DNA of 39,587 nucleotides, taken from the NCBI GenBank assembly GCA_029098085.1, contig JAQXNQ010000167.1:1-39587 (forward strand), read 5' to 3'. The position numbers and the translations under genes were made by a program. Origin of the DNA: Oscillospiraceae bacterium. Its GTDB lineage: Bacteria; Bacillota; Clostridia; Oscillospirales; Ruminococcaceae. Below, piece by piece: positions 20,018 to 38,706 of this stretch. Position 1 is the stretch's first letter. Each line of letters opens with the position of its first letter. Under the pieces are notes generated by a model, which saw only the letters and a list, made by a program, of their open reading frames with translations, ran no database searches and was not told the origin of the DNA.

Positions 20018-20031
20018 CAGATTTCACCTCA

Positions 20032-21378: not shown

Positions 21379-21391
21379 GCCGATCGCTCCT

Positions 21392-22717: not shown

Positions 22718-22724
22718 AACCTCC

Positions 22725-23185: not shown

Positions 23186-23229
23186 GGAGGTATAAGAAAT
23201 GCAGTATGTACATGGGAGGAGATGGTACA

Positions 23230-23623: not shown

Positions 23624-25174
23624 ATGGAACCGATTATTGCGCTGGATTTTGGAAACTGTTATTCGTTTCCCTGCTATATTCCCGAGCTGGACATCTCTGT
23701 CAGCCGCCTGGGAGGCAAGCCGGTGGACCTGCTGCCCAGTGATATGCACTACGGCTATCCCAGCGTATTCTTCTATTCCCGGCGGGCAGCCGAGCGCTGC
23801 CGGAAGAATGGACAGCAGCTGCCGCCCTGGTGCGGTGCTGACGCGGTGAAGGCCAAGGCCTCTCCGGAGGGCAACCGGGTGCGCAACCTCAAGCGCCATC
23901 TGGGAGAGCCACTGGTGCTGGACGACTGGAAAGGCAGCTATGACGATGCCATCGTTCAGCTGATCCAGTATCTGATGCGCCGAGCCAACGAGGTGCTGCG
24001 CACCGAGGCGCTGGTCACCACCCACCGGCTGGCGCTGTCCCATCCGGCCACCTACACCCTTTCCCAGCGCATCCATCTGAAAAACCTGGCCGAGCAGGCC
24101 ACACTGGAGGACGGCACCCACATCCAGGTGGTGGGGATGATTGATGAGCCGGCCGCCGCCGCTCTGGATTATCTGGTGGAAAACGGCCGCGGCGACCAGG
24201 ACACCACCGTGCTGGCCTATGATCTGGGAGGCGGCACCTTTGATCTGGCCATTGTGTCGGCCTATCCCCAGGGGCGCACCAGCGCTTCCGGCAATCCCTA
24301 TTATTATCGCGTTGAGAAGACGGGCGGCATCTCCAGTCTGGGCGGCTCGGACTTTGATGAGGTCATGCTGCAGCTGCTGAAGGCCAGGATTCCCGCTTCA
24401 AAGCCGGTAGACGAGGATTCGCTGCGCCGGCTGGCTGAAACGGCCAAACTGGAGCTCAGCCGCGACCCCGACACGGAGCAGGAGATCTACACCAAGTCCG
24501 GCGAGGCACTGTTCGTTACCGTCACCCGGCAGGAATTTGAAAAGGCAGCGCTGCCGCTGGTACAGCGTACGGTGGAGGAAACCCGCCAGATGCTGAAGGA
24601 GTACAGCGGCAAGCAGCCCGAGCTGCTTGTGCTGACCGGCGGCGCCAGCCAGATGCCGATGGTGCAGCGAGAGCTGGAAAAGGCCTTTCCTCAGTTTAAG
24701 GGTCACATCTGCCTCTACCGTCCCAGCAGGGCCATCGCCTACGGCGCCGCCCGCTACAATACGCCTCTGGAAGAGAACTGTGTGCAGCGGTGCGTTCCCC
24801 GCGATATCGGGATCCGCTATTATCATGGCAACAGCGACAAGAAGTATGTCGAGACCTATATCCCGGCCGGTACAGAGCTGCCTTTTGCCAGTGCATACGA
24901 TACTTCCACGACCCGGGGACCGGATGTTCAGTTCTCCTACTTCGCGGTGATGGAAGCCAAAGTCAGCCACCCGGACCAGGAAGCCCCCGACCGTGACTAT
25001 ACCGAGATCCTGTCGGTGACGCTGGATCATGGCAGACCGGTGCCGCAGGGTACCCCGTCCGAGGCCCGGCTGGTGCTGGATCAGAACGGCCTGCTGAGCG
25101 TGGAGGCGCGCGATCCTTCCAAGCCGGATAAGCCCCCGGTCAAAAACAGCTGCACATTGAAGAATCTGAGCTGA
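23624..25174 (+). CDS. Hsp70-family ATPase A (actin-fold NBD plus beta-sandwich SBD-like region, no helical lid)
   Basis: ATG lies 8 nt after GGAGG. Motifs are IALDFGN (phosphate-1), EPAAAALDY, DLGGGTFD (nt 24221-24244), GGSDFDE and LVLTGGASQMPMVQREL (adenosine motif). The C-terminal approximately 130 aa resemble SBD-beta (RDIGIRY...IPAGTELP...LVLDQNGLLSVEA). Confidence 0.85.
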   Translation: MEPIIALDFGNCYSFPCYIPELDISVSRLGGKPVDLLPSDMHYGYPSVFFYSRRAAERCRKNGQQLPPWCGADAVKAKASPEGNRVRNLKRHLGEPLVLDDWKGSYDDAIVQLIQYLMRRANEVLRTEALVTTHRLALSHPATYTLSQRIHLKNLAEQATLEDGTHIQVVGMIDEPAAAALDYLVENGRGDQDTTVLAYDLGGGTFDLAIVSAYPQGRTSASGNPYYYRVEKTGGISSLGGSDFDEVMLQLLKARIPASKPVDEDSLRRLAETAKLELSRDPDTEQEIYTKSGEALFVTVTRQEFEKAALPLVQRTVEETRQMLKEYSGKQPELLVLTGGASQMPMVQRELEKAFPQFKGHICLYRPSRAIAYGAARYNTPLEENCVQRCVPRDIGIRYYHGNSDKKYVETYIPAGTELPFASAYDTSTTRGPDVQFSYFAVMEAKVSHPDQEAPDRDYTEILSVTLDHGRPVPQGTPSEARLVLDQNGLLSVEARDPSKPDKPPVKNSCTLKNLS

Positions 25175-25205
25175 CCACAGGCTGACAGGAAAGGTGGTTT
25201 TCCAA

Positions 25206-26792
25206 ATGTACGATATTTTTGGCTGCGACATCGGCAACGGGTTCGCTTTTGTGTCGCTGATCCCCGGGCCGGACAGCGATGCCCAGCCCATGCTGCCGGT
25301 TTCCCGCGACCTGAACCCCAACGAGGGGATGCCCACTGCCGCCTATGTCACCCCGCCCGGCGCCGACCCCATTCTGGTGTACGATGCCGACAGGGGAACG
25401 GCCGCCCGCAGCATCCGCCGGGATCCGGCCCACGGTGTGCGGGCGGTGAAGACTCACCTGCGCCGGGCCGCCCTGGAGATGGATGGGCTGGACAGCCCGC
25501 TGTCGCCCTACGCCGTCTACGGCGCGGCGGCCCGGGATCTGGTGCGGCTGGGCAACCTGCAGCGGGCTGCGGACGGCCTGCCTCCTATCTACCGGCTGGT
25601 GCTGACCTATCCGGCGGCCTTCTCCAATTACAGCGACGAGCTGGAGATTCTCAACCGGATGCAGGCGGCGGTGGAGGCGGTCAGGCTGGATGACCATCCG
25701 CTGCAGGTGGTCGGCCGTCTGCCCGAGCCGGCAGCGGTGGCCATCGATTATCTGTACTATATGCAGCATCAGCTGCCCGAGGACCAGAGATTGAAAGACG
25801 ACCAGTTTACCGTACTGGTGTTCGATCTGGGCCATGGTACCTTCGACGTGGCCGTTGTCACGGCCCGCAGCAAGGGCGAGCCCTATCAGGTATGGGCCAG
25901 CGATGGGCTGCCCGACGTGGGCGGAAAGGATTTTGACGCCCGCCTGATGGATGAGCTGCTGGAGATGATGCAGCAGGAGGGCTATCAGCTGCGGGATGCG
26001 CAGGAGCGGGAGGAGCTGCTGCGCGAAGCGGTGGCTGCCAAGCATGAGCTGTCCCGTGACGAGGAGGCCGTTGTCCGTCATCAGAATCGCCGGAACGGTT
26101 CGTATATGGAGCTGACCATTACCCGTGCGCGGTTTGAGGAGATCACCCGCGACCTGCTGCTGCAGGTGGTGGAAAAAACCCAGCAGATGCTGCAGGATCA
26201 GCTGGCCCGCGGCCGAACGGTGGACAGCATCGTCCTGTCGGGCGGCGCCAGCCAGATGCCGATGGTGCGCAGGGCACTGGAGGCCTATATCCAGCCGGCC
26301 GTGCCGGTGCAGCCCCCGTTCCGCCCCAGCAGAGCCGTGTCCTTCGGCGCTGCCCGCTATGGGCTGGGGCTGTCTGTACAGAAAAGCGAGGGCAGGAAGA
26401 AGGAAAAAGACCCCACACCCGCTCCGCCCAACCCGGTGGCTCAGCTGTACACCAGGCATTCCTACGGCGTGCTGGTGGAAACGGCCGACGTGATGGAAGG
26501 GAAGGTTCAGATCCTGCTTCCTGCCGAAACGCCGCTGCCCGCCACCGCCACTTTGGAGGAGTACTGGACCGGCAGAGGGCGGATGGACTGCCGCGTCTAC
26601 CGGCCCCGCACTCGCACCAAGGTCAGGGTTCTGGAGCCCGACAAATGTGTGAACCTGAGATGGCTGCACTTTGATCTGCCGCCGGACACCTATCGCCTGA
26701 CCCTTACAGTGGATCCCAACTATAACATCATTGCCAGGCTGGAGGGCAGAAACGGCACCGTCCACACCGCCAGCACGGCCGAAGAAACCTGA
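25206..26792 (+). CDS. Hsp70-family ATPase B (divergent paralog of A, also lidless)
   Basis: ATG 25206 lies about 9 nt after AGGAAAGGTGG (GTG 25194 is an alternative). Motifs are GCDIGNG, EPAAVAIDY, DLGHGTFD (nt 25824-25847), GGKDFDARL and IVLSGGASQMPMVRRAL. The SBD-beta-like C-terminus includes HSYGVLVE...LLPAETPLP...LTLTVDPNYNIIARLEG. Confidence 0.85.
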   Translation: MYDIFGCDIGNGFAFVSLIPGPDSDAQPMLPVSRDLNPNEGMPTAAYVTPPGADPILVYDADRGTAARSIRRDPAHGVRAVKTHLRRAALEMDGLDSPLSPYAVYGAAARDLVRLGNLQRAADGLPPIYRLVLTYPAAFSNYSDELEILNRMQAAVEAVRLDDHPLQVVGRLPEPAAVAIDYLYYMQHQLPEDQRLKDDQFTVLVFDLGHGTFDVAVVTARSKGEPYQVWASDGLPDVGGKDFDARLMDELLEMMQQEGYQLRDAQEREELLREAVAAKHELSRDEEAVVRHQNRRNGSYMELTITRARFEEITRDLLLQVVEKTQQMLQDQLARGRTVDSIVLSGGASQMPMVRRALEAYIQPAVPVQPPFRPSRAVSFGAARYGLGLSVQKSEGRKKEKDPTPAPPNPVAQLYTRHSYGVLVETADVMEGKVQILLPAETPLPATATLEEYWTGRGRMDCRVYRPRTRTKVRVLEPDKCVNLRWLHFDLPPDTYRLTLTVDPNYNIIARLEGRNGTVHTASTAEET

Positions 26793-26812: not shown

Positions 26813-28201
26813 ATGTCAAACTATTCCCATGCTTTGGATGCCCACAGCCGTTTCTGGAAGGATCCCAACCGCCGCAATCCCGGCTGCTGCAGAAATTTTT
26901 ACCGCAAGCTGTGGCAGGGCATTCTGCAGGACTATGAAGAATTCGGCCGCTGTGAATACATCGAGCGGCTGCTGAGCAGGTCCATTGTCAGTATCACCCG
27001 AGTGGAATTCAGCATACTGACAGGGATGGCGAAGGAGGAACCGTTCCTTGATCCTGATAGCCTGGACCGCATCCCCCATATCATCTACAGAGATGGATGG
27101 GGTCAGCGCGACGTTTTCTGGGAAGAGGGCAGTCTCGTTCAGGCCGTTAAGGAAACAGACCTGCAGAACGCCGGTATCATCCGCACCCGGCTCCGCGCCC
27201 AGGCGGCCATCCGTGACAGCAGGATCGACATTCCCATCGGTGGAGATACCCCATCCGCACAGGTTCCTCCGGTGCAGAAGAAAGAGGAGCTTCAGACCCA
27301 ACAAATGATCCGGCAGGCCGAGGCCCAGGCTCAGCAGCTGCTGACTGAGGCCCGGCAGGAGGCCGAGCGCATCCGCGCCGAAGCCGAGGCTGAACGGGCA
27401 CGGCTGAATGCTGACCACGCCGCGCTGCTGGCTGAGGCCCGGCAGGAGGCTGACCGCATCCGCTCCGAAGCTGAGGCTGAACGGGTGCAGCTGAATGCTG
27501 ACCGCGCCGCATTGCTGGCCCAGGCCGACAGTCAGGCCAGACAGCAGGCCCGGAATCTCATCACGCAGCATCTGGCCGATTACCAGCGCCAGATGCGCCT
27601 TCAGTGGGATCGTGACACCGCCGAGGCTGAGCAGCAGGATACCCGGGCGACTCAGGAAATCGACAGCGCCCGCAAAGAAATGTGCGGTACCGTCAACGAC
27701 CTGAAGGTCAGTTGGCGCACCGATCTGGAAAAGGCCATTGAGGAGATGCGCGGACTGCAGACCCAGCTGGAAACCCGTCTGCGCGACTGGCAGCGGGCCC
27801 TGTATCCCCGCGAGTTTGAGCCGCTGGCCGATTGCTACGTTCAGCTGTACCGCATCGTCAATCAGGATCGCCTGCTGGCTGACGCATTGACCGCGGAACA
27901 GGGCGGCGGCAGCAACTATCAGCTGCTGGAACAGCTGAGCAGGTCGCTGTCTGTATTCCTGCGCAAATTTGCCAAAGCCATGGGCCGTCTGGGGCTGCAG
28001 GTGTATGTGCCTGCTGTGGGCGAGCCTTACGATGACGTGCTGCAGGCACCGGACGGCGATGAGCCTGACGATGCGTTTGACAGGACCGTGGCGGAATGTC
28101 TGGTGCCCGGTGTGGTGTACCAGCTGGAAGGCAAACAGGAAGAGGGCGATCCGATCATTCGCGCCGTTGTGCGCCTTGCGCCCGGATCCGGGGAGGAGTA
28201 A
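26813..28201 (+). CDS. Coiled-coil protein with a GrpE-like C-terminal domain (putative nucleotide-exchange factor for the Hsp70 pair)
   Basis: The central part is an E/A/R/Q-rich coiled coil. The C-terminus reads ..FLRKFAKAMGRLGLQVYVPAVGEPYDDVLQAP....VAECLVPGVVYQ....IIRAVVRLA. This parallels the E. coli GrpE pattern (..VVRKFGVEVI...PLDPNVHQAI....V..V.QKGY.LNGR.IRAAMV.V), recalled from memory. Confidence 0.6.
   Translation: MSNYSHALDAHSRFWKDPNRRNPGCCRNFYRKLWQGILQDYEEFGRCEYIERLLSRSIVSITRVEFSILTGMAKEEPFLDPDSLDRIPHIIYRDGWGQRDVFWEEGSLVQAVKETDLQNAGIIRTRLRAQAAIRDSRIDIPIGGDTPSAQVPPVQKKEELQTQQMIRQAEAQAQQLLTEARQEAERIRAEAEAERARLNADHAALLAEARQEADRIRSEAEAERVQLNADRAALLAQADSQARQQARNLITQHLADYQRQMRLQWDRDTAEAEQQDTRATQEIDSARKEMCGTVNDLKVSWRTDLEKAIEEMRGLQTQLETRLRDWQRALYPREFEPLADCYVQLYRIVNQDRLLADALTAEQGGGSNYQLLEQLSRSLSVFLRKFAKAMGRLGLQVYVPAVGEPYDDVLQAPDGDEPDDAFDRTVAECLVPGVVYQLEGKQEEGDPIIRAVVRLAPGSGEE
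27347..27520 (+). repeat. Tandem 87-nt (29-aa) duplication inside the GrpE-like coiled coil
   Basis: Nt 27347-27433 encode EARQEAERIRAEAEAERARLNADHAALLA. Nt 27434-27520 encode EARQEADRIRSEAEAERVQLNADRAALLA. Confidence 0.9.
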
Positions 28202-28204: not shown

Positions 28205-29161
28205 ATGGCATATTCCGGTTATCAGGCTGCGGCCCTGTACGACTTTACCCATCATATGCGGCAGGACAACCTGTCCTTCCCGGTTACCGAGCTGGTGATC
28301 GATGCCGACCGGTGTGCCCTGGGAATCTGCCGCTGTGACGAGGGCGGCGGCATCGCTTTGCTGGAGCAGGCGGAATTGTCCCAGCCCGCGCCGCTGGATC
28401 AGCTCTGGCTGGAGCAGATTGCTGCCGGCTGCGGCGTTTCCGCCCGGGAGGCGGCCGGCCTGCCGGATGAGGCGCAGGCCCAGACCCGTTTGTGGAACTA
28501 CTACTGCGCCGGACGGCGCTCCGACGCTCCCGCCTTTTCGCTGCCGGACGGCCGCACCCTTTGCTGCAGCCAGCTGGATGCAGCTTTTGCTCCGGTGCAG
28601 GCACTGCTGGATCAGCTGTTGGAACAGGGGCTGCAGCTGCTGGAGCGGCTGCACATCCCCGAAGAGCAGCTGCGCATCCTGACTGTTGGCCGGATGGCCG
28701 ACTGCGCGCCTGTCCGGCTGACACTGCGCGGGCAGCTGTGCTTTGACCCCTTCCTGCCGGATGACCGCTTCGTGGCTCTGCGGGCAGACGAGGATCCCGG
28801 CCGCATCGTGGAGGAGGGAATGCGGCTGCACCAGCAGACCCAGATGATAGGGATCGAGCTGGATCTGCTCTGCACCGACGCTTCCGGTGCAGAGGAGGTT
28901 CTCTGTCTGGCCCGGAGCCAGCAGCTGGCCTCCGCCCTGTCCGATCCCCATTACTGTCCGCCGGTTTTTGTGTCGGCGTCCGAGCCGCTGCGCTTCCGTA
29001 CGGGCGGCCGGGTATGGGAGCAGCCGCTGCCCTACGCAATCGGCCCGCTGGACGGTGACCTGGTGGAGGCAGCCTGCGTTGTGCGGGCCGGCCGGCCGCT
29101 GATTCTGCTGCGCCGAACCCTCGCCCCCACCCGGGTTTATGAGGTGCAACCGCAACTGTGA
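28205..29161 (+). CDS. Hypothetical protein (possibly a degenerate actin-fold/ASKHA-like domain; weak)
   Basis: ATG lies 6 nt after GGAGGAG and 3 nt after the upstream TAA. LVIDADRCALGICRCDEGGG is reminiscent of a phosphate-1 hairpin. RILTVGRMADCAPVRLTL is reminiscent of the Hsp70 adenosine motif. No confident family assignment. Confidence 0.6.
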   Translation: MAYSGYQAAALYDFTHHMRQDNLSFPVTELVIDADRCALGICRCDEGGGIALLEQAELSQPAPLDQLWLEQIAAGCGVSAREAAGLPDEAQAQTRLWNYYCAGRRSDAPAFSLPDGRTLCCSQLDAAFAPVQALLDQLLEQGLQLLERLHIPEEQLRILTVGRMADCAPVRLTLRGQLCFDPFLPDDRFVALRADEDPGRIVEEGMRLHQQTQMIGIELDLLCTDASGAEEVLCLARSQQLASALSDPHYCPPVFVSASEPLRFRTGGRVWEQPLPYAIGPLDGDLVEAACVVRAGRPLILLRRTLAPTRVYEVQPQL

Positions 29162-29175
29162 AGGGAGAAACCAAC

Positions 29176-30390
29176 ATGAATAACCGTCAAAAAAAGCTCC
29201 TGAGCCAGCAGCTTCTGGCTCAGGCCAAGGCGCTGGAGCAGCAGGAGGGCCCCCAGCTGGCTGTTTCGGTGACCGCCGCCTGCAGCGCGCTCCTGAAGGC
29301 GGCGAGTGCTGACGTTGAAACGATGGATCCGGCGTCTTTTGAGAATCTCTACGCCAGTTTTTCCCGTCTTGCCCAGCAGACCGAGGCGTTCTTTGAGGGC
29401 GCTCAGGTCCGGCTGCAGGCCGGGGTGCAGACTCCCGGGCAGGAGCTGTCTGACAAACGGCAGCAGGTCGAACAGCTGCGCGCCCGGTTGGAGGCGGCTG
29501 ACCAGGCCGTTCAGGAGCTGGAACACCGACTGGCTGATGACCGGGCCCGGCTGGAAGAGGCTCAGAAACGGATGACCGACGCAGAGGAAGCCCACAGCGC
29601 CCTGTGCAGGCTGCTTGACGACTGCTCGGACGAAAAGATCGCAGCCCGGCTGGCCGGGAACGAACAGCTCAAAGAGCGCTTTGCCGAGGCCAACCTGCGT
29701 ATGCACACCCTGACTAACGAACATGACCGGCTGCTCCGGCAGCTCCATGAGATCGAAGCCGACATGGAAAAGATACCCCAGCAAAACCGCGAGCTGGTGG
29801 AGCGCTGCGGCGAACAGGAAAAGCTTCTGGAGCGCCTGCGCAATGCTTTTGAAATCTACAGTCCTGAAAAGCAGGCTGAACTCCAGAAGGAGATTGACAC
29901 GCTGAGCGCGTCGGTGGAGGAAAACCAGCAGGCGGCGCAGCTGCTGAAGAGCCGTCTGGATGATCTGCAGGCTCAGCACACGGAATATGATGCCGCCCGC
30001 CAGACCCTCAGCACCAACCTTCTGGATTTGCTGCAGCGCTCGATGGGCGATTTGCAGACCGCGCTGGATGACCACGAAGAAAAGCTGAGCACCATCCGCA
30101 CCCAGGCCGAGACCCTGACCGGCCGGCTTGCCGCCTGTCTGGAGACCCGCCGCCGCTGCAGCGACTGGCTGGATGCCGACATCACGCCGCTGGAGGCGAT
30201 GATCCGGGCGGTGGACCGGCCCGAGGCCGCCGAGCTGCGCCGGACGCTGGATCCCGGCAGCATCCATCAGGTTCAGCAGTTGTACACAGAGATCGAGCAG
30301 CGGCTGCAGCAGCTGGACGACATCCTGAGAAAATGCACCGATGCTGTGCGTTTGGATCAGGGTGCGCTGGATAAGCTGGCTCGCCGCTGA
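29176..30390 (+). CDS. Long coiled-coil protein (hypothetical)
   Basis: ATG 29176 lies 8 nt after GGGAGA. The approximately 400-aa product is Q/E/L/R/A-rich with heptad character throughout (for example QVEQLRARLEAADQAVQELEHRLADDRARLEEAQKRM). Stop is TGA. Confidence 0.7.
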   Translation: MNNRQKKLLSQQLLAQAKALEQQEGPQLAVSVTAACSALLKAASADVETMDPASFENLYASFSRLAQQTEAFFEGAQVRLQAGVQTPGQELSDKRQQVEQLRARLEAADQAVQELEHRLADDRARLEEAQKRMTDAEEAHSALCRLLDDCSDEKIAARLAGNEQLKERFAEANLRMHTLTNEHDRLLRQLHEIEADMEKIPQQNRELVERCGEQEKLLERLRNAFEIYSPEKQAELQKEIDTLSASVEENQQAAQLLKSRLDDLQAQHTEYDAARQTLSTNLLDLLQRSMGDLQTALDDHEEKLSTIRTQAETLTGRLAACLETRRRCSDWLDADITPLEAMIRAVDRPEAAELRRTLDPGSIHQVQQLYTEIEQRLQQLDDILRKCTDAVRLDQGALDKLARR

Positions 30391-30414: not shown

Positions 30415-31011
30415 ATGAGCATCATCTACTATCACATGAAAGAGCCGGCTGTGGATGTTCTGGGCCCCGGCAGGCGGTTCGTGCTGTGGGTGCAGGGCTG
30501 TCACAAAAACTGCCCCGGCTGTGTGGCGGGCGGTACCCACCGCATGGAGGACGGCAAGCCGGTTCAGACCGACGCGCTGGCCTGGGAGATTGCTCTTTCG
30601 GGGGCGGAGGGGCTGACCATCAGCGGGGGCGAGCCGTTTTTGCAGGCTCCCGCGCTGGCCCAGCTGCTTCAGGCGGTGCACCGCATCCGCCCGATGGGGG
30701 TCATCGTCTACACCGGCTACCGGTATGAGGAATTGCTGGCCATGCCGCAGGCAGCCGGGCTGCTTGCGCAGACCGACCTTCTGATCGACGGCGAGTACAT
30801 CCAGTCCCTCGACGACCACCGGGGTCTGCGGGGCTCGTCCAACCAGCGGGTGATCCCGCTTTCTGATGTTTATCGTGAAATCGCCCGCCAGTATGCGGAT
30901 ATCCCGCGCAGACAGCAGGTCTTTTATCATGGGGCGGAGATCCATGAGGTGGGTCTGCCCGACGAACATGGAGCCTATCCCGAGCAGGAGAAAAGGAGCG
31001 TTACAAAATGA
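30415..31011 (+). CDS. Radical SAM protein of the anaerobic RNR-activase (NrdG-like, 4Fe-4S single-cluster) type
   Basis: VLWVQGCHKNCPGC gives a CxxxCxxC motif (nt 30499-30522). A LTISGGEPF SAM-binding motif is present. The size (198 aa) and the tail ..IDGEY......GLRGSSNQRV fit the small glycyl-radical activase family. Its stop overlaps the next start (ATGA). Confidence 0.8.
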   Translation: MSIIYYHMKEPAVDVLGPGRRFVLWVQGCHKNCPGCVAGGTHRMEDGKPVQTDALAWEIALSGAEGLTISGGEPFLQAPALAQLLQAVHRIRPMGVIVYTGYRYEELLAMPQAAGLLAQTDLLIDGEYIQSLDDHRGLRGSSNQRVIPLSDVYREIARQYADIPRRQQVFYHGAEIHEVGLPDEHGAYPEQEKRSVTK

Positions 31012-32543
31012 GTGGAAGAAAAACAACCTATACCAGCATCAGCGTGGATGAACTGATCCGCCTTCGCCGTCAGGCCTGCCAGGCCTCCAGCCTGTCCCAG
31101 TGTAATCAGGCGCTGCAGCAGCTCGCCGAGCGCAGCGAACAGCTGATGCGCCAGCAGCAGAGCCGCATCGACAGCCTGAACTCCACCATCAACGGCCTCA
31201 ACCGCACCATAGCCAGTCAGGACGCCGCCGCCAGCCGTGAACGCCAGCAGCTGCGCACCCAGCTTCAGACTACGATTCAAAACACCAATCAGGCGCTTCA
31301 GCAGATGGCTGCCCGCAGCCAGCAGCAGATGCAGGAGCTGAGCCAGCAGTTCCGGCAGGATCTGGCCGCCCATCGGACCGACACCGCCCGCGCCATCGAG
31401 GAGAGCAACCGGCGGATGGATCAGGCTCTCCAGTCGGCTGTTTCCTCGCTGGAAAGCCAGATCGGCACCGTCAGCAGCCGGATGGACCGGATGGAACAGG
31501 ATCTGGCCGACAGCGCCCGCCGGGTGGGCATCCTGTTCAATTCCAACGCTTCGCTGCTGGAGCTGGCCCGCGAATACGCCGATGTGGCCCGCACCATCGC
31601 CGATGATACCGCCCGCAATTTCCGCACCGAACTGCTGCTGCCCGGACGGCTGGAGCAGGTGCAGGAGCTGCTGCGCACGGCCGATCAGGACATCCGCGAC
31701 GCCGACGGAAAATTCCCCACCAACGCCCCGGTGGCCCGTCAGAGCGCCCGCACCGCCGCCACCGCCGCCATGCAGCTCCATGAGGATATGGTGCGTGCCG
31801 AACAGGCCTGGCAGGCCCGCTATCAGGCTGCCGTTCAGGCCCTGAACGCCGCCGAGGCTCAGATCGAGGCCTGTCGCCGTATCCGGTTCCCCGGTGAAAC
31901 CGCTGAGATCGACGTGGATCGCTGGAGCAACGGCGATCTGTCTGCGCTCAGCACCCGTCAGGCCGCTCTGCGGGGCCAGCTGAACAATGCCGACGGTCTG
32001 TCTGTCGAGGCGCTGGACGGCATCCGACAGGCCGGCGCCCAGCTGGCCAGCGAGGTGCTGGAAACCTCTGAATTTGCTGCCATCGCCTTTGGCGCCAGCC
32101 AGGACCGGGCCGATGTGGCACAGGATGTGGCCGACTCCATGCGGGAGTCTCTGGGTCTGATGATCGTGGATCACGGCTTCCAGAGCGGCGATCAGCGCGC
32201 CGCCCACCGCATCCACCTGAAAAATCCCCACACCGGCTTTGAAATGGTTGTTACCCAGTATCCCGAGACCGGCCCCGACGGCGTGGTGGGCAACCGGCTG
32301 GAATCCGACATTCTGGATTACGGCACCAACAACGAGCAGGAGGGCGACCGGATCGCCTACCAGGCACTGAGCGCTCTGTCCGGTCTGGGGCTGTGCCAGC
32401 AGACGGTGCAGACGGTGCCCGGCTATGAAAACTGTCCCTCCGACCGCCGCCAGCAGACCGATATGGCTGCCTGGCGCCATCAAGAGGCCGAGCTGCCCTG
32501 CCCGGTACACACCCAGCCCGCTGGTCAGACTGCCGTCAACTGA
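31008..32543 (+). CDS. Coiled-coil protein with a globular C-terminal domain (hypothetical)
   Basis: ATG lies 9 nt after AAAGGAG and overlaps the upstream TGA. The N-terminal approximately 290 aa are a Q/R/A/L-rich coiled coil. The C-terminal approximately 200 aa are non-repetitive (..MIVDHGFQSGDQRAAHRIHLKNPHTGFEMVVTQYPE..). Confidence 0.7.
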   Translation: MSGRKTTYTSISVDELIRLRRQACQASSLSQCNQALQQLAERSEQLMRQQQSRIDSLNSTINGLNRTIASQDAAASRERQQLRTQLQTTIQNTNQALQQMAARSQQQMQELSQQFRQDLAAHRTDTARAIEESNRRMDQALQSAVSSLESQIGTVSSRMDRMEQDLADSARRVGILFNSNASLLELAREYADVARTIADDTARNFRTELLLPGRLEQVQELLRTADQDIRDADGKFPTNAPVARQSARTAATAAMQLHEDMVRAEQAWQARYQAAVQALNAAEAQIEACRRIRFPGETAEIDVDRWSNGDLSALSTRQAALRGQLNNADGLSVEALDGIRQAGAQLASEVLETSEFAAIAFGASQDRADVAQDVADSMRESLGLMIVDHGFQSGDQRAAHRIHLKNPHTGFEMVVTQYPETGPDGVVGNRLESDILDYGTNNEQEGDRIAYQALSALSGLGLCQQTVQTVPGYENCPSDRRQQTDMAAWRHQEAELPCPVHTQPAGQTAVN

Positions 32544-32573
32544 CCTTTCACATTCTACCAATAAGGTGATCGC

Positions 32574-35500
32574 ATGCTTAGCAGAAATAATTCTTATTTT
32601 GATCCGCAGCTGTGCATCGACGGGCACTACATCATCACCGGGCGGACAAACGACCGCTTCTGCAGTGACACCCTGGAACTCACTGACATCCTGCCGGTTC
32701 TTCACCATTATCTGCTGTACGAGCAGGGATTCGACGCGGTGTTTTTTCTGGATAACGAGAATATGCTGTTCTGTCTGGATCGGCATTCCTTCGATGTACT
32801 GACCCTGCCGCCGGACGCCCCGGAGGCAGGTGCGGTACGGACCGGTGCGGTGAGTGCCGATGGCCCTTTGGGACGGCGCCGCCGCCGGAATGCCGCGCCG
32901 GAGGCTGCTGCCGGTCGGCAGCAGGACGCCGCCCGTCCGCTGAATATGGGCCGTATGTCGCTGCAGAGCGCCTGGCAGCAGGTGTCGGGTGTGATGAAGC
33001 ATACCGAAGCCCGCTGCGCGCTGGTGATCTCAAACGCCAATATGATGAAGGGCGGCGAGCAGCTGCTACTGGAACTGTCCTCCTTTTACAGCACCAACCA
33101 CAGCGTTGTGCTCTATCTGTTCCGCGAAACCACCCTGAACAACGTGGCTGAGTGGACCACCTTCGCCCGCAATGTGCTGCTGCCCCGCATCACCACCACC
33201 GACCCCATTGCCAACCGGGTGATTTCGCTGTCCTCGCCCAACAGCCGGGAGGTGCGCAATCTCCTGAATCGGCTGCGGTTTGACCCTGGCACCCCGGTGC
33301 CGGTGCAGGCCGGCGACATCCCGGAGCTTGGCAGCATTCTGGCTGCCAGCTGTGCGCGCAATAACTGGGGACTGGTGGATCTGCTCGGCCGGCTGTACGG
33401 TTACGCGTCTGCCCATCCCGACCGGACGCTGACGCTGGATAACTGGCGGGAATACACCGAGGAGACCTCCTACCGCTCGGCTATGGAAGAGCTGGAAGCG
33501 ATGGTGGGACAGGAAAAGGTCAAGCAGCAGCTGCGCGCCATGCGGGCCGACCAGGAGTGCCGGGGCGAGATGCGCATCGAGCCCCTGTCCTCCAGCCGCT
33601 TTGCCCCTCTGCCGGTGTACAACCGGCGGCTGGGCCACAGTCTGAATGTGCGCCTGAAGGGCAGCGCCGGCACCGGCAAGACCACCATCGCCCAGGTTAT
33701 CGGCCGGATCTATTATGATCTGGGGCTCCTGTCCCGGTCGTATGTGCGGGAGTGCAGCGCCGCCGACCTGGTGTCGGGTTATGTCAACCACACGGCTGAG
33801 CAGGTCCGCCAGCTGGTGCAGGAGGCCATGGGCGGCGTGCTGTTCATCGATGAAGCCTATGCACTGATGGACGGCCAGCACGGCCAGGAGGCCATCAACC
33901 AGCTCGTGCACGATATGTCCGCTTACGAAGGGCAGTTCGCCGTGATTCTGGCGGGCTATTCCCACCAGATCGACCAGCTGATGCGCACCAACGAAGGACT
34001 GTCCAGCCGGTTTCCCAACGAGTATGTGCTGGAGGACTACACTCCTGCTGAGATGCAGGCCATCTTTCGCCGGATGGCCGCCCGCGAGCTGCCGCCCGTC
34101 ACCTTCAGCCCGTCGCTGGAAGCGCGGATGGACGACTTTTTTGAGACCTGGGTGAGCGGCAGGGGGCCGAACTGGGGCAATGCCCGTGAATGCCAGAACC
34201 TGCTTCCCGAGATGAAAAAGCTGTGCAGCCTCCGCGAGGCGGCCCTGCAGGTGCGCGGCCGCAGCTACTGCCTTACGGAAGCGGATGTTCCCGAACGGCT
34301 GCGCCACTGTCTGGAGCCCCGCAGCAACGGCCCCAGTGAGACCATGGCCCGGATCGATGCAATGATCGGACTTGGCGGCATCAAGCGGTTTTTGCGCCAT
34401 CTCGTCCAGCGCATCCTGATGGGCGAACGGGAACAGGGCCCCGGCAACTTCATCTTCTTCGGCCCTCCGGGCACCGGCAAGACCACCGTGGCCCGCCAGA
34501 TGGGCGAGCTGCTGGGGCTGCTGAGGGTACTGCCCCGGCGCCATGTGGTCGAGTGCCGCGCTGCCGATCTGCTGAACGGCTCGGTGCAGCTCAGCGAAGC
34601 GGTGGAGTCTGCCCGCGGCGGCGTGTTCTTTCTGGACGAAGCCCATCAGCTGGCTGAAACAGACCATGGTCAGCAGATCATCCGGGCGCTGGTGCCGCTG
34701 GTGGAGGATCCGGATATCCGGGCGGACACCTGCTTCATCTGCGCGGGCTATGCGGACAGAATGCGTCATTTCCTGTCGGCAGACGCCGGCATGAACCGGC
34801 GTTTCCCGCTGCAGAACCGCATCCGGTTTTACGACTATACCGCCGAAGAGCTGGTGCAGATTCTGGAAAAGATGGCCCGTGACCGCGGCCAGGAGCCCGA
34901 TGAGGAATACCTGCAGCGGTCGCTGGCGGCGCTGGACGCGTATATGCCGCGCCGGCCTGCCGATTTCGGCAACGCCGGATTTATCCGGGACACCTTCCTG
35001 CCCGGATCCATCGATGCCCGTACCCGTCGGCTGAATATCCAGATAACCGGTTCACCCGACGCCATCGCCACCGACGAGCAGCTGGCATCGCTGACCGAAC
35101 AGGACCGCAGGCGGCTCACCGCCTTCGACCTGCCCGAAGACTTTGCCCGGATGGCCGGCCCGGTGGGACGCCGCCCGTCCGCCCGCCTGTCTGCCTGGCA
35201 GCGGGTGCAGGCTCTGCTGGGCAAGGACGAGATCATCAGCTTTGCCCGCGCCCGGGCGTTCGGCAGCGGTGAACGGCAGTTTTTTGACGCACAGACTCAG
35301 GGAGGCCTGCACTATGCCATCACCGGTCCGTCCGGCTGCGGCCGTCACACGGCGGTTCGGGCACTGGCCGCCCTGTGGAGGGAGGCCGGCCTGCTGGAGC
35401 GCGATGACGTGATCTTTGCCGGCAACGGCGACCTGGTGGCCGGCTATGTGGGCCAGACCGCCGGCAAGACGCAGCGGGTGATTGAGCAGGCGGTTGGCGG

Positions 35501-37646
35501 CACGCTGGTCATCGAGTATCCAAGCAGCCTGCTGCCCAAAAACAACGAGAACTCCTTTGGCCCCGAGGCGCTGGGCACCATTGCATCCGCCATGGCCGCT
35601 CACTTTGGGGACACCAGCTTCGTGCTGCTGGATACCCCCGAAGGTATGGAAGCTCTGTTCAAGGCCCAGCCCGCCCTGCGCGGTCAGATGGCCCGTATCT
35701 TTGAGCTGGAGGACCTGACCCCGGTTCAGATGGAATCGATTTTCAGGGAAAAGACCCGGGACAGCATGATGTTTGAGGACAGCGTGGAGGAGCTGTTGAG
35801 TGACTTTTTCCTGAACTGGGTCAGCAATCGCGGCGGACTCGGCGATGCCAGCCGCAGCTGGGCCAATGGCATGGAAGTGGATCGTCTGATTGAAGACCTG
35901 AAGATAAACTGGAAAAACTCCGGCGGCCAGGCCGATGAGCAGACGGTCACCGAAAACGGACGCAGCTACCAGCTTGTCCGCCGGCGCATTCTGGCTGCTC
36001 ACTTCCCCCGGAAGGTGCAGCGGTATCTCAAGCGCACTTCGGTGGTATCCGAAAGCGCCCTGCAGGAGTTGCAGGCACTGCCCGGCCTGCACCGGGTGAA
36101 ACGCTCCGTCCAGGGCATCCAGCGGCGCATCCGGCGGCTGGGCCGCACCAACAGCAAGCCGGGCTGTTATCTCTACCTGGGCAATCCCGGCGTTGGCAAG
36201 ACCACCGTGGCCCGTTTGATGGGCGGTGTGCTGCACGCCGCCGGCGTCCTGAGCCAGGGACACGTCATCGAGCGAACCGCCCGTCAGATCGGCGATCAGC
36301 TGAATGAGTTCGACTCCATCCTCAAACTGGCCCGCGGCGGTATCCTGTTTATTGATGAGGCTCACCAGCTGGCTGAGCCGCAGAATTACTGGGGCCGGGA
36401 AATTATCAAGCGCCTGCTGACCGTGCTGGAGGACGATGCGGTGACCAACGCCACCTGTATCATCCTGGCCGGCTATCCCCAGTCCATGATACGTCTGCTG
36501 GAGCAGGATGAAGGTCTGGCCAGCCGGTTCGGCTCCGAAGACAACATCATTGTGTTCGATGACTACACCGCTGACGAACTGATGCAGGTGATGGAGCATA
36601 TGGCGGCCCGGGCCGATCGCATTCCCAGCATCGGCGCGGTTCGTCCGCTGGTCACCAATGAAGAGTTCCGCCGGCATACCCGTGCAGTGTTCGAAGCCGT
36701 GCTGGCCCGCGGCGACCACGATTTCGGAAACGCCCGCTTTGTGCGCACCTATCTGCACGATGCCCTGAACGCTCAGCTGGAGCGGATGGATCGCGAGTAT
36801 GGCGAGATCGACGATCCGCCCGCCGATGTGGCCGATCTGCTGACCGAACAGGACATCCCGGAGCGGTACCGCCATCTGGCGGAGGAATCCCGGCGCCAGT
36901 ATGCGGCTCCGGATCCCGCCCGGATGGACACCCGGCGCGGTGCGGAGGTGGACGAGCTGAGCTACGACGCGGCCTGCGAACAGCTGTCCCGGAGCGTCGT
37001 GCTGCTGGAGATTACACGGGGCGGCCGGAAGACCGGTACGGCCACCGGCACCATTGTCACCTCCGATGGTCTGGTGCTCACCTGCGCCCATGTGATTCGG
37101 GGAGCGGAGCGCATTCGCGCCCGGGTATACTGTCCCGGCGCACCGGGCGGCGACACCCGCTGGTTTGACAGCCGGCTGCTGGAACCGGTGTGCAGCGACT
37201 GTGACATGGCCATGCTGCAGTTGGATGGCAATCATTTTGTGCCCGCGCCGCTGCGCCCGCTGGATCAGCCGCCGGCGGCCGGCGAGCGAACCCTGATTCT
37301 GGGCTACCCGCTGGGCGGCATGCTGGCCGGCGGTGACAGAGACGCTCTGCGCATCAGCAATTTCTCCGGCCGCGTGGCCTCCTGCCAGCTGGTAGGCTCG
37401 GTGGAGCGATGCTATGTGGACAGCACCGGCCTCCACGGCAACTCCGGCAGCCCGGTCTTTTCGATGACGGACCGGCGGGTGATCGGCGTTTTTTCCGGCT
37501 CGATCATCCCCCGTCAGGAAGGCTCGCTGGATGAGTTGAACTATTTCCATCCGCTGCACTATTTCTGGGAGCGGTTTGCCGCCCAGCAGCCGTCTGTACA
37601 ACCCGGTGCGGCAGAAGAGGAGGAGAACAATGGCAGTGAAAACTGA
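32574..37646 (+). CDS. 1690-aa multi-AAA+ (SpoVK/CbbX-type) ATPase fused to a C-terminal trypsin-like serine protease
   Basis: Intact modules: GSAGTGKT/VLFIDEA (Walker A nt 33660..), GPPGTGKT/VFFLDEA (nt 34461..) and GNPGVGKT/ILFIDEA (nt 36180..). One degenerate module has GPSGCGRH/TLVIEYP (nt 35325..). The CbbX-type signature DLV(S/A)GYV(N/G)(H/Q)TA is present. The protease triad is TCAH(1506)V, D(1544)MAMLQL and GNS(1624)GSP (Ser codon at nt 37443). Confidence 0.85.
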   Translation: MLSRNNSYFDPQLCIDGHYIITGRTNDRFCSDTLELTDILPVLHHYLLYEQGFDAVFFLDNENMLFCLDRHSFDVLTLPPDAPEAGAVRTGAVSADGPLGRRRRRNAAPEAAAGRQQDAARPLNMGRMSLQSAWQQVSGVMKHTEARCALVISNANMMKGGEQLLLELSSFYSTNHSVVLYLFRETTLNNVAEWTTFARNVLLPRITTTDPIANRVISLSSPNSREVRNLLNRLRFDPGTPVPVQAGDIPELGSILAASCARNNWGLVDLLGRLYGYASAHPDRTLTLDNWREYTEETSYRSAMEELEAMVGQEKVKQQLRAMRADQECRGEMRIEPLSSSRFAPLPVYNRRLGHSLNVRLKGSAGTGKTTIAQVIGRIYYDLGLLSRSYVRECSAADLVSGYVNHTAEQVRQLVQEAMGGVLFIDEAYALMDGQHGQEAINQLVHDMSAYEGQFAVILAGYSHQIDQLMRTNEGLSSRFPNEYVLEDYTPAEMQAIFRRMAARELPPVTFSPSLEARMDDFFETWVSGRGPNWGNARECQNLLPEMKKLCSLREAALQVRGRSYCLTEADVPERLRHCLEPRSNGPSETMARIDAMIGLGGIKRFLRHLVQRILMGEREQGPGNFIFFGPPGTGKTTVARQMGELLGLLRVLPRRHVVECRAADLLNGSVQLSEAVESARGGVFFLDEAHQLAETDHGQQIIRALVPLVEDPDIRADTCFICAGYADRMRHFLSADAGMNRRFPLQNRIRFYDYTAEELVQILEKMARDRGQEPDEEYLQRSLAALDAYMPRRPADFGNAGFIRDTFLPGSIDARTRRLNIQITGSPDAIATDEQLASLTEQDRRRLTAFDLPEDFARMAGPVGRRPSARLSAWQRVQALLGKDEIISFARARAFGSGERQFFDAQTQGGLHYAITGPSGCGRHTAVRALAALWREAGLLERDDVIFAGNGDLVAGYVGQTAGKTQRVIEQAVGGTLVIEYPSSLLPKNNENSFGPEALGTIASAMAAHFGDTSFVLLDTPEGMEALFKAQPALRGQMARIFELEDLTPVQMESIFREKTRDSMMFEDSVEELLSDFFLNWVSNRGGLGDASRSWANGMEVDRLIEDLKINWKNSGGQADEQTVTENGRSYQLVRRRILAAHFPRKVQRYLKRTSVVSESALQELQALPGLHRVKRSVQGIQRRIRRLGRTNSKPGCYLYLGNPGVGKTTVARLMGGVLHAAGVLSQGHVIERTARQIGDQLNEFDSILKLARGGILFIDEAHQLAEPQNYWGREIIKRLLTVLEDDAVTNATCIILAGYPQSMIRLLEQDEGLASRFGSEDNIIVFDDYTADELMQVMEHMAARADRIPSIGAVRPLVTNEEFRRHTRAVFEAVLARGDHDFGNARFVRTYLHDALNAQLERMDREYGEIDDPPADVADLLTEQDIPERYRHLAEESRRQYAAPDPARMDTRRGAEVDELSYDAACEQLSRSVVLLEITRGGRKTGTATGTIVTSDGLVLTCAHVIRGAERIRARVYCPGAPGGDTRWFDSRLLEPVCSDCDMAMLQLDGNHFVPAPLRPLDQPPAAGERTLILGYPLGGMLAGGDRDALRISNFSGRVASCQLVGSVERCYVDSTGLHGNSGSPVFSMTDRRVIGVFSGSIIPRQEGSLDELNYFHPLHYFWERFAAQQPSVQPGAAEEEENNGSEN

Positions 37647-38706
37647 TCTGTGTCCGGTGTGCGGCCGCCCTGCGGCCATGGAAGCATCCGACGTATGGGG
37701 CTGCCCGGAATGCGGGTTCGCTTATTCGCAGGTCAAGCGGTTTGCAGGCAGCGGCGCGCTGGCAGTATGGCGGCAGGCCGCTGCCAGGGAAAAACGCCGT
37801 CTTGCGGAACGGGTGATCGGGCTGTGTGCCCGGCAGCCGGTATTTGGCTTCAGCGGCGGGTCTTTGACCTTCACCTCGCCCCAGGATGGCCGGCTGTATC
37901 TGGTGGAAGCCGGCGGGGTTCGTCCCCAACGGCCTGAAGTGCGCCAGTACAGTGCGCCCGAAAATGCGCTGCGAAATAAGGTGTTTCTGCTCTCGGACGG
38001 CCGTCTGGAGGCAGAAGGGGACGACGAATACGGCCAGTGCAGAACCGGGAATCTCCATGACATCCGCCGGGTGCTGGCCACACCACGCTGCACCTACGCC
38101 GTCACCAATGAGGGGAATGTGCAGTGCTGCGGCGAGCCTTTTTCGCCCGCCGTGGCCGGTTGGAAAAACGTACAGGAACTGGCCGCCGGCGCCTACCATC
38201 TGGTGGGCCTGACCGGTGACGGGAGGGTGCTGGCGGCGGGCGATATGCTGAACAGCGCTGTCGCTGCCGAGATTGCAGGCTGGCGGGAGATCACCGCCAT
38301 TGCCTGTGCCGGAGATGCCACCATCGGTCTGTGCAGGGATGGCACCGTCCGTTTTGCGGGGCGCCCCGGCGATCCGCGCGAAGCGGTGCGCGACTGGAGC
38401 GGGATCGCGGCCATTGCCATCGAGAGCGTCTACGCGGCAGGTCTGACGGCTGACGGCCGGGTACTGCTGGCAGGCAGAAATTTCAATGATGACCTGGATC
38501 TGGGCCGCAGAGAGGCCGCCGGCTGGACTGACGTGGCGGCCATCACCTGCAGCCGTTCCGGTATTGCCGCGCTGGGCGTGGATGGCTCTGTCCGGCTGGC
38601 CGGCAATATCCGGGACATCGGCAGACTGAAAAGCGCATGGGACTCTTTTTCGGATACGGTGCGCAGCCAGCTGCTGCAGGCCGTTATGATCTTGCCTTTT
38701 GTTTGA
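37630..38706 (+). CDS. Zinc-ribbon plus RCC1-like repeat (beta-propeller) protein
   Basis: ATG 37630 follows GGAGGAG and overlaps the last 17 nt of the giant gene. The N-terminus has CPVCG..x13..CPECG. It then carries about 6 repeats of the type AAGAYHLVGLTGDGRVLAAG, CAGDATIGLCRDGTVRFAG, ESVYAAGLTADGRVLLAG and CSRSGIAALGVDGSVRLAG, plus GDDEYGQC. Confidence 0.75.
   Translation: MAVKTDLCPVCGRPAAMEASDVWGCPECGFAYSQVKRFAGSGALAVWRQAAAREKRRLAERVIGLCARQPVFGFSGGSLTFTSPQDGRLYLVEAGGVRPQRPEVRQYSAPENALRNKVFLLSDGRLEAEGDDEYGQCRTGNLHDIRRVLATPRCTYAVTNEGNVQCCGEPFSPAVAGWKNVQELAAGAYHLVGLTGDGRVLAAGDMLNSAVAAEIAGWREITAIACAGDATIGLCRDGTVRFAGRPGDPREAVRDWSGIAAIAIESVYAAGLTADGRVLLAGRNFNDDLDLGRREAAGWTDVAAITCSRSGIAALGVDGSVRLAGNIRDIGRLKSAWDSFSDTVRSQLLQAVMILPFV

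Follow-up and report, generated by a model that had tools for sequence, protein, structure and literature searches.

A chain of four SpoVK-clade AAA+ modules ending in a chymotrypsin-fold serine protease, and the conserved gene cassette that carries it in an Oscillospiraceae bacterium

AAA+ ATPases of the SpoVK/CbbX/EccA clade have been characterised as single-module remodellers of narrow targets, not bulk unfoldases, and neither fusion to nor association with a peptidase was found for them (PMC11513918). Tandem SpoVK-like ATPases are known from the extensions that Type III-A CoCoNuT systems carry, where they stand in a defence context and have Walker motifs conserved in some domains only (PMC11090510). 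The gene considered here is located in contig JAQXNQ010000167.1 of an Oscillospiraceae bacterium (assembly GCA_029098085.1), positions 1–39,587 of which constitute the window of this analysis; it is an open reading frame (ORF) of 1690 amino acids (aa), from ATG to stop, at positions 32574–37646 of the plus strand. Its product, called the AAA-protease below, is the largest member of a graded family composed of an N-terminal domain (N0), one to four AAA+ modules of the SpoVK clade (M1–M4) and an HtrA-like serine protease that some members lack. A first-pass annotation had described a single chain with several SpoVK/CbbX-type modules and a trypsin-like protease, and this description holds: the Pfam AAA model and the NCBIfam SpoVK, EccA and CbbX models each match four stretches of the chain, and a Trypsin_2 domain is present. 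All motifs quoted in that annotation were located at the residues it had assigned to them by a direct check of the sequence. The layout of the gene is as follows.

32574..37646, plus strand: AAA-protease gene, N0-M1-M2-M3-M4-protease (ORF and homologues)
32574..33473, plus strand: N0, aa 1–300, predicted AAA+-like α/β domain with a lid and no nucleotide site (AlphaFold 2, Foldseek)
33474..34328, plus strand: M1, type A, live (K369, D426/E427, AGY sensor-1, pore loop GYVNHTA)
34329..35213, plus strand: M2, type B, live (K636, D688/E689, AGY, R743; pore-loop-1 segment deleted)
35214..36023, plus strand: M3, type A, catalytically dead (GPSGCGRH, IEYPS, LDT replacing AGY, pore loop AGYVGQTAGK)
36024..36923, plus strand: M4, type B, live (K1209/T1210, D1261/E1262, AGY, R1318)
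36924..37646, plus strand: C-terminal chymotrypsin-fold serine protease, Trypsin_2 at aa 1490–1639 (triad H1506/D1544/S1624)

More than 100 full-length homologues of about 1700 aa, 29–70% identical to the protein and collinear with it, come from independent assemblies, among them NCBI genomes and a contig 1 Mb long, and the longest internal DNA repeat of the gene is 62 nt at 76% identity. The gene is therefore no assembly chimera, a danger that the first-pass annotation had pointed out; with the ORF intact, the catalytic residues invariant and long internal DNA repeats absent, a chimera assembled from repeats of AAA genes, or a pseudogene in decay, is hardly conceivable. The start codon is right, since the N-terminal motif MxxxNxSYFD is kept in homologues. 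Long antisense ORFs of 567–875 aa extend across the gene (33066–34769, 35052–37679 and 30975–33002, all on the minus strand); the three face a conserved coding frame in DNA of 63% GC and are best read as mechanical, not as genes.

The motifs of the four modules were followed in an alignment of 54 homologues (A1), to which the residue counts for the modules refer. M1 has the Walker A motif GSAGTGKT (363–370) and the Walker B motif VLFIDE, with K369 in 54/54, D426 in 51/54 and E427 in 50/54 homologues. The corresponding motifs are GPPGTGKT (630–637) and VFFLDE in M2, and GNPGVGKT (1203–1210) and ILFIDE in M4; K636, D688, E689 and R743 of M2, and K1209, T1210, D1261, E1262, A1299/G1300/Y1301 and R1318 of M4, are invariant (54/54). 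M3 carries GPSGCGRH (918–925) at the Walker A site and IEY (980–982) at the Walker B site. The earlier assignment of M1, M2 and M4 as live and of M3 as dead, with the Walker A lysine replaced by arginine, agrees with these counts, M2 and M4 being invariant and M1 near-invariant in the Walker A Lys and the Walker B Asp-Glu; the proposed order dead-live-live-dead-live, followed by an intact serine protease, is kept within the clade of the window protein.

Comparison of the modules with each other gave E-values of 2e-47 for M2 and M4 and 5e-29 for M1 and M3 (blastp), and of 1e-80 to 4e-27 between module profiles (hhalign); this likeness, far beyond chance, marks the four modules as unmistakable paralogues. 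M1 and M3 (type A) have in common a GYVGxTA pore loop and the lid motif WxN(A/G)xE, and M2 and M4 (type B) the motifs DEAHQL, TCxIxAGY and FGNARFVR, so the four modules are, by the module alignments, a duplicated A–B pair. As the same alignments show, the B modules keep every catalytic element, including the trans-acting arginine, and are missing pore loop 1, with a deletion of five residues at its expected position in both M2 and M4.

In M3, the P-loop glycines G918/G921/G923 are invariant among the 54 homologues; position 924 is Arg in 37/54 and Lys in 17/54, and position 925 is His in 39/54. Within the clade of the window protein, M3 has lost the Walker B Asp-Glu (IEYPS), the AGY sensor-1 (LDT), the arginine finger and the sensor-2 arginine, and no other pore loop of the chain is as well conserved as the one it keeps, AGYVGQTAxK. 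A sister clade (P0116–P0120, five sequences, ~30% identity) has a canonical M3 with GNPGTGKT, ILFIDEAY, AGYP and NxGLxSR. The ancestor therefore had four competent modules, and M3 was inactivated later: all its hydrolysis residues were lost after the duplication, and M3 was then kept under selection in its new state, with the P-loop glycines and the pore loop intact.

The closest solved relatives of the chain belong to the SpoVK-EccA-CbbX clade: a phmmer search against the Protein Data Bank (PDB) gave EccA1 (9e-27) and CbbX (2e-24) as the best sequence matches, and in a Foldseek search with the four-module core CbbX was the best single-domain match (template modelling score TMt 0.70–0.72, 26–27% identity). 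The GY signature of this clade (PMC11513918) is present in M1, M2 and M4, M3 having LDT; G461/Y462 of M1 are conserved at ≥90%, and A724 and Y726 of M2 are invariant. The column of the clade asparagine lying upstream of the first of the arginine fingers is occupied by N473 (≥90%) in M1, D737 in M2 and D1312 in M4, and a conserved arginine follows six residues downstream of it, not four (R479, R743 and R1318). A sensor-2 arginine is found in M2 (FGNAGFIRD, R805 at ≥90%) and M4 (FGNARFVR, R1388 and R1391 at ≥90%); among the A modules, M1 has WGNARE with a variable arginine, and M3 has WANGME without one.

Assignment to any named member of the clade was considered and rejected. The CbbX model TIGR02880 (361.6 bits vs a cut-off of 459.25) and the EccA model TIGR03922 (412.4 vs 466.65) stay below their cut-offs even when summed over four modules. 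The SpoVK equivalog TIGR02881 scores 455.8 bits against a cut-off of 422.95, passed only as the sum of four stretches; the N-terminus of the chain is N0 and not the SpoVK N-terminal domain (NTD), and the operon is unrelated to sporulation. Four summed modules can thus pass an equivalog cut-off, an annotation hazard, since proteins of this kind could receive the wrong name 'stage V sporulation protein K' in automated annotation.

The N-terminal 300 residues had been proposed to be a still more eroded copy of the modules. No Pfam family was found on N0, and the motif pairs cited as equivalents (DGHYIITGRTN and GLHYAITGPSG; AVFFLDNENML and GVFFLDEAHQL) are not significant (blastp E 0.69 and 9.8). 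Alignment of N0 with the modules by hhalign reached a probability of at most 15% with 54-sequence alignments and 12.8% with 150-sequence alignments; the sole local match, not significant with the 150-sequence profiles, pairs N0 130–155 with M1 437–462 over a helix-strand unit. The AlphaFold 2 model of N0 on the family alignment (predicted local distance difference test, pLDDT, 83; predicted TM-score, pTM, 0.77) contains repeated β-α units followed by a helical bundle, and AAA+/STAND ATPases account for every one of its best 50 PDB matches by Foldseek, including Cdc6/Orc1, ATAD2, p97, TRIP13, Mpa, ClpX, FtsH and RFC, with weak scores (E 1e-4 to 3e-2, TM 0.2–0.4); N0 has no Lys/Thr P-loop. N0 is accordingly accepted here as a predicted AAA+-like domain devoid of a nucleotide site: the AAA+-like part of the earlier proposal stands, on the modelled fold, its part on descent from an eroded SpoVK-type copy is not adopted, and homology of N0 to the modules rests on that fold only, because the sequence match is never significant. 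Inside N0, a disordered Arg-rich insert was observed (pLDDT <50 at aa 86–111), with GPLGRRRRR at aa 97–105 (window 32862–32888); its consensus, GPLGxRRRR, is conserved across the family despite the low pLDDT, and the insert may be a nucleic-acid- or partner-binding tail.

A homologue search with N0 alone returned only three fragments. The N0 profile (A4), searched against 1.84 billion representatives at E ≤ 1e-3, retrieved at least 620 clusters, and N0 is N-terminal in 149 of the 150 best matches listed. Representatives of at least 700 aa were sorted by architecture with custom hidden Markov models, and the following series was obtained (lengths are approximate): N0-AAA-protease, 820–840 aa; N0-2xAAA, about 860 aa; N0-2xAAA-protease, 1040–1170 aa; N0-3xAAA-protease, about 1400 aa; and N0-4xAAA with or without the protease, 1450–1770 aa. 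N0 is an ancient, family-defining domain, already found in the one-module relatives. Two rare variants are P0234 (1281 aa), with N0 ahead of three ClpB-type AAA_2 modules, and P0177 (674 aa), with N0 behind an HD-CE domain, the sole exception to the N-terminal position; they mean that N0 is a mobile module not tied to SpoVK-type ATPases. The first-pass annotation knew of few bacterial chains carrying so many modules, which is true of the literature and not of genomes: chains with two, three or four Walker A sites of the SpoVK type are common in Actinomycetota, Bacteroidota and Bacillota. A contig scan with generic AAA patterns gave, among the matches listed, mostly other tandem SpoVK-like proteins and one true orthologue; a tblastn search against plasmids and phages found no full-length relative.

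The C-terminal domain matches Trypsin_2 at aa 1490–1639 with an E-value of 2.5e-18 in the full-length Pfam scan and 1.5e-19 for the isolated segment; the score of 67.6 bits against a gathering cut-off of 27.6 and the right His-Asp-Ser order identify a chymotrypsin fold. All full-length homologues (48/48) have the triad H1506/D1544/S1624, proposed from the sequence in the first-pass annotation. Among solved structures, Deg/HtrA and MarP come closest to the domain (E ~1e-5). No PDZ domain was found among the best 25 of the 47 families of the full-length scan, nor among the matches listed for the segments, the N-terminal sequence shows no evident signal peptide, and the chain ends ~50 aa past the protease domain; the protein does not belong to the HtrA/DegP family proper, which has PDZ domains and is secreted or periplasmic. 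Protease-less orthologues of ~1465 aa exist in about ten clusters, and one of them (locus L003) is encoded in an otherwise identical operon, which implies that the ATPase chain has a protease-independent role and speaks against a pure Lon-like degradation machine.

AlphaFold 2 modelling of aa 300–1450 gave a pLDDT of 86.4 and a pTM of 0.67. Two-tier chains (p97, Rix7, ClpB, ClpA and ClpC) align with the core over ~550 columns, mostly at TMt 0.32–0.52, with p97, Rix7 and ClpB at about 0.5. Dynein and RNF213 align over ~1400 columns with a TM-score of 0.13–0.15 and a root-mean-square deviation (rmsd) of 28–35 Å. A single-chain ring of the dynein/midasin type was rejected: the protein has 4+1 modules, not six, and the superposition on dynein has a TM-score of 0.14 and an rmsd of 33 Å. 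In the mechanism proposed here, the modules would assemble into a hexameric tier or tiers, as in CbbX, EccA and SpoVK, and the resulting complex would be an ATPase dedicated to remodelling proteins, not a bulk unfoldase. ATP turnover would be supplied by M2 and M4 and to a lesser extent by M1, and M3 would contact the substrate as a structural or nucleotide-binding-only module. As for the tethered protease, it would either cleave the engaged client or become active upon assembly. A single ring in chain order would make one of the strictly conserved sites (M2 or M4) dependent on the fingerless M3. HtrA-type protease domains are trimeric, and a trimer fits in so far as three chains of four modules amount to 12 modules, or two hexamers; speculatively, such a trimer could form two stacked rings, a B ring in which all modules are competent and an A ring in which live M1 and dead M3 alternate.

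The AAA-protease gene is the ninth of ten co-directional genes and belongs to a conserved 15-gene cassette that occupies positions 18050–38706 of the window. Some gene starts were corrected from homologues and from the sequence. The genes other than that of the AAA-protease are listed below (SAM, S-adenosylmethionine; HTH, helix-turn-helix).

18050..23027, minus strand: divergent arm as a whole, five genes of the same cassette
18050..18721, minus strand: 223-aa zinc-ribbon protein with two transmembrane (TM) segments, divergent arm
18761..20017, minus strand: 418-aa protein, divergent arm
20032..21378, minus strand: soluble TraG/TrwB-like ATPase, divergent arm (PADLOC mad8, 5e-16)
21392..22717, minus strand: HEGTH-motif protein of ~400 aa with a Gly/Asp-rich repeat tail, divergent arm (no Pfam family)
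22725..23027, minus strand: 100-aa protein, divergent arm (no Pfam family)
23206..23595, plus strand: XRE-type HTH regulator, head of the plus-strand operon (sequence; PADLOC HTH matches)
23624..25174, plus strand: Hsp70-like A (Pfam HSP70; 5e-32 and 1e-31 for the pair)
25194..26792, plus strand: Hsp70-like B (Pfam HSP70, the other of the pair)
26813..28201, plus strand: X, 462 aa, coiled coil (no family beyond coiled-coil noise)
28205..29161, plus strand: Y, 318 aa (no family match beyond coiled-coil noise)
29158..30390, plus strand: Z, 410 aa, coiled coil (no family beyond coiled-coil noise)
30415..31011, plus strand: NrdG-like radical-SAM activase, 198 aa, C29-x3-C33-x2-C36 (Fer4_12, 1e-31)
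31008..32543, plus strand: W, coiled-coil protein of 511 aa, whose gene immediately precedes that of the AAA-protease
37630..38706, plus strand: zinc-ribbon and RCC1-like β-propeller protein; a 17-nt overlap joins its start (ATG, with GAGGAG ahead) to the end of the AAA-protease gene

All ten plus-strand genes are homologous and syntenic in four other loci (L001, L002, L003 and L086), and this synteny persists down to 31% identity of the AAA protein. The regulator (HTH_3/HTH_19/HTH_31) holds the same position in L001, L002, L086 and L090, the propeller gene is kept downstream in L001, L002, L003 and L086, and the Hsp70-like genes are conserved in L001, L002, L003, L086, L087, L089 and L090. 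X, Y and Z are poorly conserved (homologous across loci at 21–32% identity). The HEGTH family comprises 55 clusters only, many of them on contigs size-matched to those with AAA homologues; the first four genes of the divergent arm are co-directional with the Hsp70 genes in L089, and all five are divergent in L090, as here. On the basis of this distribution and gene arrangement the arm was assigned to the cassette. The HEGTH and 100-aa proteins retain 51–57% identity between distant cassettes vs 31% for the AAA-protease. A promoter and terminator scan gave counts no higher than in shuffled sequence; within that scan, one plausible promoter lies at 23115–23142 and one hairpin at 38811–38834.

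Shorter relatives of the AAA-protease occur in reduced loci. In L050 (Muribaculaceae) and L088, a protein of 513–586 aa, with a coiled-coil match in L088 only, is followed by the radical-SAM gene, W and an N0-2xAAA-protease gene, and no Hsp70 gene is present; the three-module version retains the Hsp70 pair. The radical-SAM gene and W adjoin the two-, three- and four-module versions examined, W being homologous to its Muribaculaceae counterpart (blastp 4e-7); the one-module version (L085) has no radical-SAM gene within the 3 kb of upstream sequence on its short contig. The minimal core would therefore seem to consist of a coiled-coil protein, an NrdG-like radical-SAM enzyme, W and N0-(AAA)n-protease, and the long forms add two or three Hsp70s, the TraG-like ATPase, the RCC1-like propeller, the XRE regulator and further genes.

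The Hsp70-like partners named in the first-pass annotation are thus real, two genes with clear Pfam matches; the GrpE-like partner named with them found no support in Pfam or NCBIfam scans, nor in PDB sequence searches of two proteins. AAA+ modules and an invariant-triad protease on one chain, two Hsp70-like genes in the operon and coiled-coil partners that may recall the interplay of the ClpB M-domain with Hsp70 could all belong to a self-compartmentalised degradation machine of the Lon/FtsH type, whose AAA tiers would unfold substrates and feed them processively into a chamber of protease domains, and which would serve quality control or disaggregation together with the Hsp70s, as in Hsp70-ClpB, and not immunity. 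We consider this unlikely: the characterised SpoVK, CbbX and EccA members are narrow-target remodellers (PMC11513918), the strictly conserved ATPase modules have no pore loop 1, orthologues without the protease stand in the same operon and short forms do without Hsp70, and the distribution is patchy and island-like, with an XRE regulator.

Of the ten plus-strand genes that were compared, the radical-SAM gene is conserved best (48–61% identity across loci), and it and W lie just upstream of the AAA-protease gene in 8/8 loci with a readable upstream region. This constant adjacency, together with the anaerobic lifestyle of all hosts seen, which NrdG-type chemistry requires, would suit a maturation machine in which the NrdG-like enzyme modifies W or another cassette protein, by a glycyl radical or otherwise, and the AAA-protease then remodels and cleaves the modified protein, so that a product is released or activated. 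Such a role is decidedly unlikely, given that no glycyl-radical domain or precursor-peptide-like gene was recognised with Pfam and NCBIfam, that the NrdG model TIGR02491 stays below its cut-off (102 vs 126 bits) and that the Hsp70s, the TraG-like ATPase and the island-like distribution would be left unexplained; maturation would in any case be compatible with a defence role rather than exclusive of it.

In type VII secretion systems (T7SS), an EccA-type AAA+ chaperone, a coupling ATPase of the FtsK/TraG type and a serine protease (mycosin) act together. The cassette has possible counterparts of them in the SpoVK-type chain, the TraG/TrwB-like ATPase and the trypsin domain, along with the small 2-TM protein; EccA is among the closest relatives of the chain (TIGR03922 at 412 bits; EccA1 the best PDB match), and the TraG/TrwB-like ATPase and the zinc-ribbon/2-TM protein are conserved in the cassette. 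That the AAA-protease serves as chaperone-protease in a new apparatus for export or transfer, following the same logic, nevertheless appears rather unlikely: begun at the conserved Met, the TraG-like protein lacks a TM segment at its N-terminus, Pfam and NCBIfam scans revealed no WXG100-like substrates, channel proteins or other components of type IV secretion systems or T7SS, a TraG-like gene is missing from the core form as far as its region could be seen, and the EccA score is below the cut-off, with no TPR domain in the Pfam scan.

The composition and surroundings of the cassette point to its mobility. The GC content is ~0.54 before ~18 kb and then 0.62–0.64 to the end of the cassette, which fills the block at 18.0–38.7 kb; the coincidence of the high-GC block with the 15 genes suggests horizontal acquisition. 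A 99-aa ORF at 38879–39178 of the minus strand resembles a Mutator-family transposase at its C-terminal end (Pfam 4.8e-5); this ORF, which follows closely on the cassette, is probably what is left of a transposase; no tRNA gene was found at the island border. Elsewhere, the Muribaculaceae version (L050) is adjoined by an integrase, a PP2C phosphatase and a kinase, and L085 by a transposase; GmrSD and RhuM flank the cassette in L089. In Waltera intestinalis (L041, 9095–12301), a BREX cassette with PglX, PglZ and BrxL is followed by the gene of a 1068-aa protein with two SpoVK-type AAA modules and Trypsin_2, which starts 3 nt after brxL on the same strand; this relative was recognised by its AAA modules, not by N0. 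The distribution of the family is patchy and its flanks are variable, the contigs coming largely from faecal or gut-associated metagenome-assembled genomes.

Two further observations concern neighbouring genes. L090 also encodes, at 16154–19363 of the minus strand, a protein of 1069 aa in which two AAA modules are combined with a Lon_C protease domain and which has PADLOC matches to DolB, PDC-M37B and BrxL; this neighbourhood thus contains another ATPase-protease fusion, unrelated to the first. At the other end of the window, positions 69–4364 of the plus strand encode a 1431-aa surface protein with choline-binding repeats, leucine-rich repeats (LRR), Listeria-Bacteroides repeats and DUF6273, which points to a Gram-positive (Bacillota) host.

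Comparison with known defence systems was made with PADLOC-DB 2.0.0. The P-loops of the AAA-protease match IetA, over the P-loop only, and mad8, a component of the MADS system (bioRxiv 10.1101/2023.03.30.534895); the protease domain matches RT-Protease_XI (2e-9) and LmuA (3e-4). Z and W have coiled-coil-type matches only (JetC/LmuB/ZorA), Hsp70-like B has one marginal match (PDC-M61B, 9e-4), and no PADLOC hit was obtained for the radical-SAM protein, X, Y, Hsp70-like A or four of the five proteins of the divergent arm. The Ophion radical-SAM system is unrelated to the cassette.

Patchy distribution, the XRE regulator at the head of the operon, mobile-element and defence neighbours, and the likeness of the protease and the TraG-like protein to defence models make it most likely that the cassette is a conflict system of strict anaerobes, directed against phages or mobile elements, with the AAA-protease as the presumable output ATPase-protease of a conserved, horizontally mobile cassette. 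For the combined explanation, i.e., a chain of the graded family acting as a remodelling ATPase-protease within a mobile conflict cassette, we would put the probability at about 0.5. A more specific version is offered tentatively: the cassette might represent an unrecognised class of anaerobe-specific immune system, in which radical-SAM chemistry and the Hsp70- or TraG-type ATPases sense or prime, and the AAA+ chain, assembled for instance as the trimer with two stacked tiers described above, fires the protease at invader or host proteins.

Several findings weigh against the combined explanation. PADLOC-DB 2.0.0 contains no system matching the cassette, the hits being partial or at the level of domains, and the literature search found no description of the N0-AAA-protease family or the cassette, so that the function is inferred; the defence-island context is anecdotal, drawn from a handful of loci, and is not a statistical enrichment. 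The strictest ATPase motifs sit in the B modules, which have no pore loop 1, an unusual arrangement for a threading motor, and for the tier arrangement the pTM of 0.67 and the TMt of ~0.5 are only hints. Proteolysis is not indispensable, since protease-less orthologues occur in the same operon; they weaken, as the sole purpose of the chain, the ATP-gated proteolysis that the first-pass annotation had suggested and that may still be one of its functions.

The protease fusion and the cassette appear to be undescribed; tandem SpoVK-type chains are common in bacteria. The N0-AAA-protease family is a counter-example to the view of the clade as single modules without a peptidase (PMC11513918), as here up to four copies of the module stand between a fossil AAA-like domain and a protease; if the immune reading is true, no member of the CbbX/SpoVK/EccA clade before this family would have been coupled to a peptidase or had a role in immunity. 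The series from one to four modules, together with the sister clade with its live M3, offers a test case for covalent linkage and programmed inactivation in AAA+ rings, a question of ring logic otherwise studied in dynein, Pex1/6 and engineered ClpX. The cassette itself, large, conserved and mobile, joins a radical-SAM enzyme to Hsp70s, to a TraG-like ATPase and to the ATPase-protease; if immune, it would add a new mechanism, probably one that needs anaerobiosis.

With the CbbX/SpoVK/EccA clade, the live modules share the AGY sensor-1, a GNAR-type sensor-2 and AAA_lid_6, and the A modules have a GYxGxTA pore loop; however, characterised members have one AAA module per chain, and here four such modules follow a dead N-terminal AAA-like domain and a peptidase is fused to them, with no SpoVK NTD, no TPR or β-helix of EccA and no RuBisCO context. 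In function, the nearest analogues are two-tier AAA+ proteins with unequal tiers, fused or paired ATPase-proteases and the tandem ATPases of CoCoNuT systems. The tandem modules of p97/Cdc48, NSF, Pex1/Pex6 and ClpB also divide the labour and conserve an inactive or binding-only site beside active ones, and in Pex1/Pex6 two kinds of protomer alternate around the ring; the tier arrangement is only hypothesised here. These proteins have two modules per chain, unlike the four of the AAA-protease, belong to another clade and carry no attached protease. The tandem ATPases of CoCoNuT systems differ in having two domains, of which the N-terminal one is dead, a C-terminal LRR region with a β-barrel and flanking VWA genes, and they have no N0, protease, radical-SAM or W partner (PMC11090510). 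Dynein, midasin/Rea1 and RNF213 likewise carry several AAA modules in a fixed live/dead pattern on one polypeptide, but six modules of another AAA clade close the ring in one chain there, compared with 4+1 here. Lon, FtsH, BrxL and IetAS, the latter two of which act in anti-phage defence, resemble the AAA-protease in that ATPase and protease are coupled, within a single chain or a single operon; in the AAA-protease, the peptidase has a chymotrypsin fold (S1, HtrA-like), in contrast to S16, M41 or S8, and the ATPase comes from another AAA+ clade and has been multiplied.

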